A stretch of 64,000 bases of DNA from Dictyostelium discoideum (lineage: Eukaryota). The notes beneath the pieces are model-generated. The model made no database searches, was not told where the DNA came from, and saw nothing but the letters and a program-made list of their open reading frames with translations. The DNA lies in NCBI GenBank assembly GCA_000004695.1, contig CM000152.2:5312001-5376000 (forward strand), given 5' to 3'. Positions 14,467 through 23,250 of the stretch are shown piece after piece. Position 1 is the stretch's first letter. Each line of letters opens with the position of its first letter. A program made the position numbers and the translations under genes.

Positions 14467-16458
<1,992 letters not shown>

Positions 16459-16695
16459 TGAAGTTAACTTTTAATGTGTTTTGAAAAGAAAATAAAACAA
16501 ATTAAAAATTTAAAAAAAAAAAAAATTTAAAAAAAAAAAAAAAATTAAAAATTTTAATACCATTTTTTTGACATTGTTCAAATAATTTTTTGGAGATATT
16601 TGTGGCCCAAAGTTAATTTAAAAAGGTAAAAAATCAAAATTTATTTGTGTCCTTTTTTTTTTTTTTTATTTTATTTTTTTTTCTTTTTTTTATTT

Positions 16696-16726
<31 letters not shown>

Positions 16727-16851
16727 GATTTCTTTTTTTAAAAAAACCAACGGGCTTATATAAATACACATAATTAAATTTTTTTTTTTTTATTTTTTTT
16801 ATTTTTTTTTAATATCCTTTCCTCTATAATAATTTAATTGCATATTATAAT

Positions 16852-18706
16852 ATGGAAGAATCAAATAACAATAATTTTTTATTTTCACCAGATTATATTT
16901 GGTCTCAATTACTTGAAAATAATAATAATAATTATAATAATAATTATAATAATATTAATAATAGCATTAATGAAAATTTACTAAATGAATTGAATAGTTT
17001 TCAAAATACAGGAGTATTTGATTTAGATACAAATATAGAACAGCAGCAACAACAACAACCAACTGAAATTCAACAACAACTACAAAACTATCAAGAATTC
17101 CAACAAAAAAAATATCAAGAACGTCAAGAACAATATCAAATTCAATATCAACAATCATATATAGAACCTTTAAATTTTAATGAAACATATAATAATGAAA
17201 CATATTGTAATATAATACCACAACCGCCCCAGGTTGAACAACAACAAGAACAAGAACAAGAACAAGAACAACAACAAAAACAACAACAACAACAATATAT
17301 TGAAAAACAAATACAAGAAATAATAAAAATACCAGAAAAAAGGCAAACACTTAACCAGATTCCTATTGAAATGATGCAACATAATTTCTTTAATACACCA
17401 AAACTTGATCAACAACTACTCTCAAATTATTCAGACTTTTTTAAAACAAATCCAATTTTACCTACAACCACAACAACAACAACAACCACAGCAATAACAA
17501 TAGATCAACAACAACAAAACCATATTGATAATCAGTCATTAAATAATTCAAACACAAAAACATCAAAGAACCAACAAAAAGATAATAATTTACCAAAAAA
17601 AAAGAATTTATCCTATGATATCACAAAAATAACATTTAATAATAATAATATAGAAAAAAAGAGAGACCAAACTGAATCAAGTAAAAATTTTAGAGAAAAA
17701 AAAAAGGAGTATGTAAAAGAAATTGAAAGTAAAATTTTAGCTCTAACCCTTGAAAATGATAAACTTAAAAAAGAAAATGATTCATTAAAAGTATTTTTAT
17801 AAAAATTAATAATTAATAATAATAAGAAAAAAAAAGAAAGATTATTAACAAAAAATACTTTATTTATTATATAATTAGACTATTAATGGATCAAATTTAA
17901 TGAGACCAGAACCAGAATCAATTAATATGATAATGGAATGTAAAAAAATTATAAAAAAACTGGAAAAAGCATTAATTGATAATGATGAAAGATCATTAAT
18001 TTATTTATTATATCATTATCATAGTGAAACATCAAAAAGGTATTCATTAGTAGAAATTGAAGTTGATAAAATTGCAAACCCATATTCACAAATAAAATTA
18101 AAGTTAGCAGGTTATATTCAAAATCCAACAACTTTAGATATTTTTGATGGTAATTTTAATAATAATAATAATAATAATGGTAATAAAGAAGAAGAAGAAG
18201 AAATATCATGGTTTATAAAATATAAAAATGAAGCAAATCTTACAATTGAACAATCAAATAAATTAGATTTATTACGTAATCAACATGGTTTAATTTTTGA
18301 AACCTTATTAAAAGAAAGAAAACAATTGGATAATGAAATTTTAAAAGTTTTTAATGAAATTATAATTGCTAGTTACGATGGTTCAAATGCAAATTTAATT
18401 AGTGATAAAGGATTTGAATTAAAGAGTAAATTGAAATCATTAAAAATGAAAATCATTTCAAGTTTAAATTTAAATTTAGATACATTCTCATCAATTAGTT
18501 CCATTTTATTACCAAAACAAGAAGCATTACTTTTGGTTAGAGCTCATTTATTTGGTTCAAGTAAATTAAATCCTCAAATGGATTTTTTAAATAATGTTTG
18601 GACAAATATAATCTCTTCAAATTCTTCATGTAGTGTTTTCGAAATTTTAAATTCTTTAAAGGAATTTTCCGATTTAGAAAATTTAGAATTAAATAAAAAT
18701 TCATAA
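16852..18706 (+). CDS. bZIP transcription factor, paralog A. Exon 1 is 16852-17790, intron 17791-17878, exon 2 17879-18706.
   Basis: Basic region plus leucine zipper at the end of exon 1 ([38 protein letters not shown]). Donor AAA|GTATTT, acceptor aattag|ACT, phase 0. Gln-rich N-terminal half. TATA-like tatataaata about 85 bp upstream. Confidence 0.75.
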
Positions 18707-19008
18707 TTAATAATAATAATAATAAATAATAATAATAATAATAATATAAAATAAATTTTTTTTTTTTATACAAACTCAAAATTAATTAGTAACTCTTTCA
18801 TTGAATAATGAAATTTTAACATAATGATTTGTTGTTTTAACCGAAAAATTGCGTGCAACTTTTTTTTTTTTTTTTTTTTTTTTTAATTTTTTTTTCTTTT
18901 TTTTTTTTTTTTATACACAAAATAAAAAAAAAATGAATCAGTTTATTTTTAGTTATCTATTTTTAAAATATTTAAACTATTCTGTAAATAATTGAATATA
19001 AAAAAAAT

Positions 19009-19421
19009 ATGGAAGAATCCAATAATTTTTTATTATCTCCTGATTCCATTTGGTCTCAACTATTAGAAAATTCATATGCATTAAATGAAATCAATTGTTT
19101 TCAAAGTTTTGGAACAATTGATAATAATAATAATAATTATAGTAATAATAATAAAAATGGTAATGAAGAACTCTCACAACCAACTGAAATTCAACAACAA
19201 TTACAAAATTATCAGGAATTACAACAACAAAAATATCAGGAGCGTCAACAACAATATCAAACTCAATACCAACAACCATATATAGAGCCAATTTTTGAAA
19301 TCGTAGTTACTCAACAAGATCAACAAGAACTAATTCCACAACAACAACAACAAGAACAAGATCAACAAGAAGATCAAGATCAAGAACAAGAACAAGAACT
19401 ACAACAACAACAACAACAACT

Positions 19422-19509
<88 letters not shown>

Positions 19510-19759
19510 AAACAACAAAAACAACAAAAACAACAGCAACAAGAACAACCGTCAATAATTAAAGAACAAGACCAAGAACAAAAGAAAATAATTCAAGAAC
19601 AACTATGTGAAAAATCAATACAAACATTAGAAAATCATTTTTTTAATACAAATACCCCAAAATTAGATCATCAAATACTTTCAAACTATTCTGAATTTTT
19701 CAAAATAAATCAACCAATAACAGATATACCTACAACTCTAAATACGAACTTACAAAGTG

Positions 19760-19842
<83 letters not shown>

Positions 19843-20438
19843 TTATTAAATGAAAAACAAATTGAATCAACATCAAAAATAAAAAGAATTAATTTAGGTT
19901 ATGATATTACAAAAATAACATTTAATAAAATTGAAAAAGGTAAAAGAAATCAAACTGAATCAAGTAAAAATTTTAGAGAAAGAAAAAAAGAATATATTAA
20001 AGATATTGAACTTAAATTAAAAGAATTAACAATTGAAAATGATAAACTTAAAAAAGAAAATGATACATTAAAGGTATATATATATATATATATTTATTTA
20101 TTTTTTAAAAATAAAAAAATATTAATTAACTTTTAATTTATTTTTTTAAAAAAAAAAAAAAAAAAGAAAATAGGAATTGAAATAATGAGATCAGAACCAG
20201 AATCAATTAATATGATAATGGAATGTAAAAAAATTATAAAAAAACTTGAAAAAGCATTAATTGATAATGATGAAAGATCATTAATTTATTTATTATATCT
20301 TTATCATAGTGAAACATCAAAAAGATATTCATTAACAGAGATTGAAGTTGATAAAATAATAAATCCATATTCACAATTAAAATTAAAATTAGCAGGTTAT
20401 ATTCAAAATCCAACAACTGAAATTTTAGATATTTTTGG

Positions 20439-20508
<70 letters not shown>

Positions 20509-21054
20509 GATGATAATGAAGAAGAAGAAATATCATGGTTTAAAAAATATAAAAAAGAAGCAAATCTTACAATTGAACAATCAAATAAATTAGATTTATT
20601 ACGTGATTATCATTGTTTAAAATTTGAATTACTTTTAAAAGAAAGAAGAGAACTTGATAGAGATATTAAAAAATTATATAATGGTATTGCATTAAGTGGA
20701 TTTGATTTAACACCAAGATCGTTAGCAAATTGGGATATTGATAAACAAATTGAAACTACAAATAAATTAAATCTATTGAAAATTAAAATCATTTCAAGTT
20801 TAAATTTAAATTTAGATACATTCTCATCAATTAGTTCAATTTTATCACCAAAACAAGAAGCATTACTTTTGGTTAGAGCTCATTTATTTGGTTCAAATAA
20901 AAAAAATCCTCATATTGAAATTTTAAATAATGTTTGGACTGGTTTAATTTCTAAATCTTCTTCTCCAAGTTTTTTTGAAATTGCAAAACTTTTAAAAGAA
21001 ATGTCAGATTCTGCCAATGCTAAAATTATGGAAGATTATTTATATAAAAAATAA
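19009..21054 (+). CDS. bZIP transcription factor, paralog B. Exon 1 is 19009-20073, intron 20074 to about 20166, exon 2 about 20167-21054.
   Basis: Same architecture as paralog A: [21 protein letters not shown]..., ...[38 protein letters not shown] | ...[38 protein letters not shown]... Long (CAA)n and (AAT)n tracts. Confidence 0.75.
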
Positions 21055-21061
21055 AATTTTT

Positions 21062-21095
<34 letters not shown>

Positions 21096-21551: not shown

Positions 21552-21580
21552 TCTGATCTAATTTAGTTCTGTAAAAAGAT

Positions 21581-21661
21581 CGACACCTGCAGGGTTCGAA
21601 CCTGCGCCTCCGAAGAGAACGCCTTAGCAGGGCGCCGCATTAACCACTTTGCTAAGGTGTC
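21581..21661 (-). tRNA. tRNA-Ser (anticodon GCU), copy 1
   Basis: Minus strand GACACCTTAGCAAAGTGGTTAATGCGGCGCCCTGCTAAGGCGTTCTCTTCGGAGGCGCAGGTTCGAACCCTGCAGGTGTCG. 81 nt with long variable arm, anticodon loop CT-GCT-AA, A box TAGCAAAGTGG, B box GGTTCGAACCC. Confidence 0.85.
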
Positions 21662-22846
21662 ATCACAAAAGTTTTGTTTGACTCACTTTATTAAAATGTC
21701 ATCTCAAACTATTTGGGGTGATACACTTTGCTTAGGTGTCACCGTGACAACAACATCAAACTCAACCTTCAATTCAAACAAATTATCCAGAACAACAACA
21801 ACCAAAATTAACACAATTAACATCAATTGAGATCTCTGCAAACTTGATTTTAGTAAATTTCTCTAAAATTTTATTTTTTTTACTTTTTTTTTCCTAGAAA
21901 TTAATTTTCAAATTTTTTTTTTTTACCTTGGAGGTTACCAAGATTTATTTTTTGTAACCTTCCAGTTTTTTTGAGTTTTTTTGAGTTTTTTTTATTTTTT
22001 ATTTTTTTTTTTTCTTAGTGTGTGTTGTTATAAAACAAATGTGTTCATATTTGTTTTAATTTTCCTCTCTTTTTTTTTTTAGTGTTTATTTATTTTTATT
22101 TTGTGTTCATTCTAACCAAGTCAAATATAAAAAGAAAAGAAAAAAAAAAAAAAGAAAGAAATAGAAAAAAAGAAAAGAAAAGAAAAGAAAAGAAAGAAAT
22201 AGAAAAAAAGAATAAAAATAATAATAAAAAAACTTTACAAATCATGTGAAAATAATAATAATAGTAATAAATCTGCTTTTATAAATTTTTTTTATTAAAT
22301 TTAAATAAAAAAAACAAATTAAGAATATATTTTTTTTGTTTTATTTTTAATTTTGAAATTTCATTTGATTTTTTCTCAAATAAAAGTAAATTATTTTTAT
22401 TTAAAATTAATTATTTGTTATCGAATAAAAAAAAAATTTAATTCAAAATAAATGAAAGTGACAATTCAAATTTATTATTTTTAAATTTAGTTTATTTTTA
22501 AAATTTACTTTTATAAACATTAAAAAGACTTGTTTTCAATTCAATGTAAAAATTTTCAATAAAAAAAACATTCATAATAAATTTTAGATATTGTCGATAA
22601 CATCAACTTATTATTTAAAAATAATCATGTTAAAAATTTTAATGTCTATTAAATATTTATTTTATTGATGACCTCACTACTTTCAAAATTTAATGCAGTA
22701 AATGGAGATCGAAGTAATAAACAAACAATCTATAAAAAATCTTGTTCAGGTTTGTTAATCTTGTTAATTCGTATTTTAATTTAAAATAATATATTTGATT
22801 AATTATTTTTATTATTTAATACTTCCCTCAGAACATTTATCTACAT

Positions 22847-23090: not shown

Positions 23091-23121
23091 TGTTATTATG
23101 TTTTGAATTTTGGAAAAATTT

Positions 23122-23202
23122 CGACACCTGCAGGGTTCGAACCTGCGCCTCCGAAGAGAACGCCTTAGCAGGGCGCCGCATTAACCACTTTGCTAAGGTG
23201 TC
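23122..23202 (-). tRNA. tRNA-Ser (GCU), copy 2
   Basis: Identical 81-nt sequence to copy 1. Confidence 0.85.
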
Positions 23203-23250
23203 ATCGAAAATAAAATGGGAGATACACTTTCCTAAGGTGTCATTGAATCA

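Follow-up and report, generated by a model that had tools for sequence, protein, structure and literature searches.

The question raised by this locus is whether four consecutive long open reading frames (ORFs) on the forward strand of a Dictyostelium discoideum contig represent four genes or two, and what type of protein they encode. The locus spans positions 16852-21054 of the 64-kb stretch of DNA that was analysed (contig CM000152.2, positions 5,312,001 to 5,376,000; referred to below as the window), which has a GC content of 22% and coding tracts of poly-Gln and poly-Asn. A first-pass annotation, made from the sequence alone, had interpreted the ORFs as a tandem pair of paralogous two-exon genes for transcription factors of the basic leucine zipper (bZIP) type. 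Our analysis indicates that the locus very probably comprises two tandem paralogs on the same strand, bzpM (copy A) and bzpK (copy B), which encode four-part bZIP proteins with a second-exon domain whose predicted fold resembles that of the C-terminal (NPR1-interacting/DOG1) domain of the TGA immunity factors of plants. The predicted proteins would begin with a short acidic/aromatic motif, followed by a long low-complexity spacer rich in Gln, Asn and Thr and by a bZIP whose basic region is non-canonical and whose zipper has four heptads; beyond a Gly-containing break would come an all-helical domain of ~270 residues. The phase-0 intron would mark the boundary between the bZIP and the TGA-like domain.

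Position 16852 is the start of the copy A ATG, and position 21054 is the final base of the copy B stop codon. The four long forward-strand ORFs between them encode 316, 268, 375 and 289 amino acids. Splice models were derived by an exhaustive search over the frame-compatible GT..AG pairs. For copy B, a full-length product was obtained from one pair only (donor 20074, acceptor 20166), which removes 93 nucleotides in phase 0 and yields a protein of 650 amino acids. The equivalent pair in copy A (donor 17791, acceptor 17878) removes 88 nucleotides, also in phase 0, and yields 588 amino acids. The proposed structure of two exons separated by a single phase-0 intron was therefore recovered for each gene, and every motif quoted in the first-pass annotation was found in both copies. 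The basic-region motif comprises 14 residues in copy A and reads NFRERKKEYIKDIE in copy B.

The spliced copy A product is identical, residue for residue and without any difference, to XP_640434.1 / Q54T17 of D. discoideum AX4, a record titled 'Probable basic-leucine zipper transcription factor M' (bzpM, DDB_G0282047). In the assembly GCA_054883475.1, the gene called next after bzpM has a 650-amino acid product, and its DNA span is identical to copy B of the window. DDB_G0282049 is listed as bzpK, right next to the entry for DDB_G0282047 (supplement, Forbes et al. 2019). Copy B is almost certainly bzpK, an assignment made from the order of the genes and from their consecutive DDB_G numbers and not by matching the sequences. 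The identification of copy B as bzpN was ruled out, since BzpN has 999 amino acids (PMC3131300) and DDB_G0282049 is bzpK (supplement, Forbes et al. 2019). Among five dictyostelid genomes, bzpK and bzpM are both listed as 'only present in Ddis' (supplement, Forbes et al. 2019). Both genes thus already figure in the catalogue of D. discoideum bZIPs, and there is nothing new in the pair itself. The public descriptions give only 'probable basic-leucine zipper transcription factor'. Our literature searches for bzpM and bzpK found no function and no annotation of a C-terminal domain, and the search for bzpK returned nothing relevant.

Relatives of the exon-2 domain were sought among 1.84 billion representative proteins with a profile and index-free HMMER. 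Two word-indexed homology searches were dominated by poly-Asn words and returned three proteins each; the family emerged from the HMMER scan, which identified 46 relatives with E-values down to 2e-47. A Pfam bZIP was present upstream in the same protein in 28 of the 45 relatives scanned. The named relatives belong to the dictyostelids Tieghemostelium, Polysphondylium, Acytostelium and Synstelium and to the protosteloid amoeba Clastostelium, the rest being environmental or transcriptome sequences; Cavenderia was added through the assembly accession of its contig. In Acytostelium subglobosum (P0006), the only intron of the gene (74 nucleotides, phase 0; L003 2090-2163) lies at the same codon as in the pair, between ...ENETLK and ETGGV.... 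In Cavenderia fasciculata (P0009), one uninterrupted exon (L002 2990-4210) encodes the bZIP together with the first half of the C-terminal domain. The junction intron is thus kept in the Acytostelium relative and absent from the Cavenderia relative. The gene model of the latter has odd short 5' exons.

The (V/I)MRPEP-domain bZIPs of amoebozoans (such as Tieghemostelium KYR02069.1, Polysphondylium KAF2076393.1 and Acytostelium XP_012757770.1) have in common with the pair the C-terminal domain, a zipper of the form LxxENxxLxxEN and a Gln at the position of the invariant Asn of the basic region. The basic-region consensus of the bZIP-bearing relatives is NQNLASRNYRQRKKEY. Where this family has QNLASRNYR, bzpM and bzpK have QTESSKNFR; the pair also lacks the P-rich linker inside the domain, and its Asn and Gln tracts are much longer. 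The two genes are a divergent, D. discoideum-restricted branch of the amoebozoan family. Many family members begin with M(E/D)EFESFFSQL, which looks like the counterpart of the ..IWSQLLEN sequence of the pair. The conserved N-terminal acidic/aromatic motif (FESFFSQL-type in P0004, P0006, P0007, P0010, P0012, P0014, P0016 and P0017) could be an activation motif, degron or export signal.

The conservation of the second exon, as claimed in the first-pass annotation, was upheld, with the 35 residues after MR(P/S) being identical in both copies. That this exon encodes a distinct domain with a TGA-like fold had not been recognised. AlphaFold2 models of the domain were built on a 24-sequence alignment and reached a pLDDT of 76 and a pTM of 0.69 for copy A, and 73 and 0.65, respectively, for copy B. 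Both models show long confident helices and disordered poly-Asn loops. In a Foldseek search of the PDB with the copy A model, the top five matches were the C-terminal domains of Arabidopsis TGA3 and TGA7, with target-normalised TM values of 0.69 and 0.68 for two crystal structures and ≤0.48 for the next best match. With both copies, TGA3 and TGA7 were the only PDB chains that aligned over 177-190 residues, with Z-scores ~5-6 above the next match. On the strength of these models, the exon-2 domain in all likelihood adopts the fold of the TGA3/TGA7 C-terminal domain.

The sequence comparisons point in the same direction, though more weakly. When the family profile was compared with the whole PDB, TGA3 was the second distinct protein (E=0.12). 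The hhalign comparison of the family and TGA profiles gave P=3.5e-4, the family's LTxEQ falling on LTDQQ and its ILxPxQEA on ILTTRQAA in a colinear arrangement. The family hidden Markov model (HMM), applied to 122 real TGA sequences, gave scores of up to 17.4 bits (median 10 bits); the reversed TGA sequences reached a maximum of 0.5 bits, and 10 bits was reached by only 1 of 1220 shuffles. The position within the protein is also shared, as the bZIP lies immediately N-terminal of the domain; it extends as far as the end of exon 1, and 7-8 residues further on the domain begins.

The plant TGAs are group D bZIPs, with solved C-terminal domains for TGA3 (7TAE/7TAC/7TAD) and TGA7 (8GYZ). They are regarded as a plant-specific subgroup (review PMC9360754), and the DOG1 domain is likewise taken in reviews to be confined to plants. 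The TGA3 domain, a helical structure with a palmitate enclosed in it, serves both dimerisation and the docking of NPR1, with the docking residues within the two LTxxQ-containing segments, and DOG1 binds haem (review PMC9360754). NPR1 docking, palmitate and haem are features described for the plant proteins. In contrast to the plant TGAs, the pair has no Pfam DOG1 match, its basic region is not of the canonical TGA type, and the amoebozoan domain carries additional low-complexity loops. A literature search found no paper tying the DOG1 domain (PF14144) or TGA to Dictyostelium.

The bZIP segment was examined against the Pfam gathering cut-offs of 22.3 bits for bZIP_2 (PF07716) and 27.6 bits for bZIP_1 (PF00170). 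The domain segments of both copies exceeded both cut-offs, with 31.5 bits (bZIP_2) and 30.2 bits (bZIP_1) for copy A, and 31.3 bits and 34.1 bits, respectively, for copy B. The Pfam check proposed in the first-pass annotation, which had named the lack of a bZIP profile as evidence to the contrary, thus detected the profile in both copies. Full-length copy A exceeded the cut-off for bZIP_2 only (26.9 bits), and the Pfam scan of full-length copy B gave zero matches, in line with the public record of the 650-amino acid product, which lists no Pfam family. The low-complexity composition probably hides the copy B bZIP from whole-protein scans.

The basic region was read in ungapped alignments to GCN4 and CREB, with positions given relative to the invariant Arg. 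This Arg is retained as the Arg of NFRE(K/R)KK, matching Arg243 of GCN4 and the Arg of CREB. In this register, both copies and the wider family have Gln in place of the invariant Asn, eight residues before the Arg, and the residue preceding this position is Asn in copy B and Asp in copy A. In both copies, the Ala-Ala pair is replaced by Ser-Ser, and the Ser/Cys preceding the Arg is replaced by Phe. The basic region had been described as divergent, and these three replacements bear this out. In view of them, the specificity for DNA probably differs from the classical TGACG/ACGT type. A Phe immediately before the invariant Arg is also found in the Pap1/Yap-type fungal bZIPs (..AFRxRK..). Pap1 differs in that it retains the invariant Asn at the N-x7-R spacing and is without a TGA-like domain; HMMER aligns its Asn with an Asn of the pair only through a one-residue gap.

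The zipper has I, L, L and L in the d positions at +10, +17, +24 and +31 from the Arg, the same spacing as in GCN4. The a positions are I/L, N and N, with the Asn residues at +21 and +28. There are two attractive g-e' Glu-Lys pairs, and the interface residues are nearly identical between the copies. From this near-identity and the bZIP pairing rules, both homodimers and bzpM-bzpK heterodimers would be expected. Exon 1 ends one residue past the fourth heptad Leu, and the next three or four residues include a Gly. The first-pass claim that the intron splits the zipper was not borne out, as all four d positions lie in exon 1 and the intron divides the bZIP from the next domain of ~270 amino acids.

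The paralogy of the two genes was established by the alignment of the proteins that had been suggested with the proposal of a tandem pair; the genes lie on the same strand, and BLASTP gave a composition-adjusted E=5e-155 with 59% identity over 488 amino acids. The aligned identity was 166/290 for exon 1 and 201/274 for exon 2. At the DNA level, 16689-18716 and 18860-21054 form one gapped alignment with 70% identity, and the duplicated unit is therefore ~2.2 kb, with little beyond the gene itself. Poly(T) runs of 38-70 nucleotides are present at 16650-16730 and 18860-18912 (5' of copies A and B) and at 21057-21094 (3' of copy B). These runs flank the duplicated units, and the flanks beyond them are not alignable.

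A repeat scan with TRF confirmed that the repeat tracts have diverged, with longer (CAA)n and (AAT)n arrays in copy B; the counterparts in copy A are shorter, being (AAT)15, (GAACAA)10 and (TAA)10 only. The synonymous divergence (dS; Nei-Gojobori) between the copies was ~0.43 overall, and the ratio of nonsynonymous to synonymous divergence (dN/dS) by the same method rose from ~0.2 in the bZIP to ~0.4 in the first half of exon 2 and reached ~0.9 over the final 168 codons. The ortholog of copy A in another D. discoideum isolate (P0003) showed 94.5% identity, and the ortholog of copy B exon 2 in 'D. cf. discoideum' (P0002) showed 97% identity. Across the paralogs, identity was 66-74%, and for exon 2 it was 73-74%, compared with 97% between orthologs across isolates; the duplication therefore took place before these isolates diverged. 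According to Forbes et al. (2019), it postdates the separation from D. purpureum. The first-pass description of a recent duplication thus holds in that the event belongs to the D. discoideum lineage. It does not hold in the sense of very recent, given the dS of ~0.43 and the retention of orthologs of both copies at 94-97% in the isolates, and 'lineage-specific' is the better term. The pair would have been born by a ~2.2-kb tandem duplication within this lineage, and its later divergence would consist mainly of microsatellite expansion and of substitutions in the C-terminal half of exon 2. The features of the two genes are collected in Table 1.

Table 1. Positions of the predicted gene features and repeat arrays of the bzpM-bzpK pair, numbered as in the window.
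Feature	Position	Strand	Description and basis
Copy A (bzpM, DDB_G0282047) exon 1	16852..17790	+	313 codons; N-terminal motif, Q/N/T-rich low-complexity region, bZIP; ORF and splice search
Copy A N-terminal acidic/aromatic motif	16852..16920	+	23 residues; kept in copy B
Copy A basic region and 4-heptad leucine zipper	17650..17790	+	Residues 267-313; Pfam bZIP_2/bZIP_1, GCN4 alignment, heptad table
Copy A intron	17791..17878	+	88 nucleotides, GT..AG, phase 0; read-through reaches a stop after 4 codons
Copy A exon 2, TGA/DOG1-like all-helical domain (predicted)	17879..18706	+	275 codons and stop; core ~17900-18604
Copy B (almost certainly bzpK, DDB_G0282049) exon 1	19009..20073	+	355 codons; ORF and splice search
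Copy B N-terminal motif	19009..19071	+	21 residues; motif comparison with copy A and family
Copy B CAA-type (poly-Gln) array	19338..19549	+	212 nucleotides, TRF score 298
Copy B perfect (AAT)27.7 poly-Asn array, exon 1	19760..19842	+	TRF
Copy B basic region and 4-heptad leucine zipper	19930..20073	+	Residues 308-355; Pfam on segment, heptad table
Copy B intron	20074..20166	+	93 nucleotides, GT..AG, phase 0; (TA)n run at its start
Copy B exon 2, TGA/DOG1-like domain (predicted) with poly-Asn loop insertion	20167..21054	+	295 codons and stop
Copy B (TAA/AAT)25 poly-Asn array within exon-2 domain	20442..20517	+	TRF; low-confidence loop in model

The upstream neighbour of the pair, at 15035-16249 on the reverse strand, belongs to the EAP30/Vps36 family (ESCRT-II; Pfam E=1.4e-10) and has very long poly-Gln tracts; the ORF represents only the last exon of this gene. 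Downstream of copy B there are two tRNA-Ser(GCT) genes on the reverse strand (21580-21662 and 23121-23203). They lie within 141-nucleotide segments that are 84% identical and 1541 nucleotides apart, representing a second small tandem duplication beside the bZIP pair.

Several observations weigh against our interpretation of the locus, and they were considered together with the alternative that each might favour. The splicing of both genes is predicted from sequence models, and exact-sequence look-ups with copy B, whether as the spliced product or as either exon by itself, gave no match. The exon-2 ORFs, read from MRPEPES and MRSEPES, might be independent genes, leaving two bZIP-only proteins of 316 and 375 amino acids that end in the 'intron', and two helical proteins. 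Each exon 2 does begin 7-8 codons before an in-frame ATG, and in D. cf. discoideum copy B exon 2 alone is annotated as a 278-amino acid hypothetical protein (P0002; 20185-21054 of the window), which is probably a truncated gene model. Against independent genes, the gaps are merely 88 and 93 nucleotides with canonical GT..AG ends in phase 0, spliced copy A is the accepted bzpM protein, and a 650-amino acid product has been called for copy B. The Met is internal to the conserved (V/I)MRPEP motif of longer proteins. The first-pass annotation had itself allowed that the second exon might turn out to be a separate gene; with 28 of 45 relatives fused to an upstream bZIP, the Cavenderia junction within an uninterrupted exon and the Acytostelium intron at the same codon, this is very unlikely, and we give it next to no credence. 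A different concern is that one or both copies may not be sequence-specific DNA binders, being either decaying duplicates or dominant-negative partners that sequester other bZIPs. The invariant Asn is missing, so that even DNA binding cannot be taken for granted; Ser-Ser stands in place of the Ala-Ala pair, and the two genes have lost one of the basic residues in the family consensus. The pair is D. discoideum-specific (Forbes et al. 2019), copy B has undergone massive microsatellite expansion and has no full-length Pfam match, and the dN/dS of ~0.9 in the C-terminal half of exon 2 could reflect relaxed constraint on one copy. We nevertheless consider the loss of sequence-specific binding improbable, as both frames run uninterrupted for 588 and 650 codons and have correct splice signals, the dN/dS in the bZIP is low, each copy is kept in other isolates, and the expression of bzpM is regulated and prespore-specific (Table 2, Forbes et al. 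2019). Furthermore, the Gln at the Asn position is a trait of the conserved family and not a sign of decay, since it belongs to the consensus shared by the bZIP-bearing relatives.

The relationship to the plant domain is open to more doubt. The exon-2 domain could be an amoebozoan-specific helical bundle that became TGA-like by convergence, with no shared ancestry or mechanism. Helical folds can converge, the structural alignments to TGA3/TGA7 show only 13-14% identity, the Foldseek E-value is weak at ~0.03, and the hhalign probability is 30-37% and concerns the C-terminal half only. Pfam DOG1 (PF14144), which is carried by all plant TGAs checked, was detected neither in the two copies (E<=10) nor in the 45 relatives (E<=0.01) or the 24 domain segments (E<=10), and no plant TGA, or any other plant protein, was among the exon-2 relatives in the HMMER scan of 1.84 billion proteins. 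The family profile also matches the boundary of the coiled-coil and DNA-binding domains of human STAT3 (E=2.6e-4), better than it matches TGA3, and helical periodicity can evidently yield such matches. The STAT3 match is probably an artefact of this periodicity, and no STAT protein appeared in either fold search. Convergence is nonetheless the unlikely explanation in our assessment, given that long alignments with a clear Z-score gap were confined to TGA3 and TGA7 for both copies, that the signal in the sequences keeps a colinear order, coincides with the two LTxxQ motifs and is lost in reversed sequences and in nearly all of the shuffles, and that the domain directly follows the bZIP, as in the TGAs. 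Common ancestry of the exon-2 domain and the plant TGA/DOG1 domain is thus probable but unproven. We see an even prospect for the fuller proposal that the wider amoebozoan bZIP family contains a true TGA/DOG1 homolog, so that the architecture would not be plant-specific, and that by analogy with the plant proteins the domain may be a sensor of a hydrophobic ligand or cofactor.

If the two genes do encode bZIP proteins with a TGA-like domain, then, judging from the zipper interface residues, the proteins would bind DNA as dimers. The TGA-like domain would most likely act as a second dimerisation or cofactor-docking module and, by analogy with TGA3, may bind a hydrophobic ligand. A role in activation is probable for the N-terminal motif and the Q-rich region. 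Dimerisation, DNA binding and any ligand are all inferred at this stage.

The main yield of the analysis is the confirmation of a raw-sequence reading of a catalogued gene pair, to which the domain assignment adds value as a modest new lead. In practical terms, the copy B bZIP escapes Pfam scans of the whole protein entirely, and one public annotation cuts the gene to exon 2. If the homology is true, the combination of a bZIP and a TGA domain either predates the split of Amoebozoa and Archaeplastida or was transferred between them, and the amoebozoan family would provide plant biologists with an outgroup for the NPR1-docking, lipid-enclosing domain. The family-wide replacement of Asn by Gln, at the most conserved DNA-contact residue of the bZIP, predicts unusual target sites. 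For the otherwise uncharacterised Dictyostelium bZIPs, regulated dimerisation and the binding of a cofactor or ligand would become a concrete hypothesis, in which the domain could couple a small-hydrophobic-ligand or cofactor signal to bZIP activity in Dictyostelium development.

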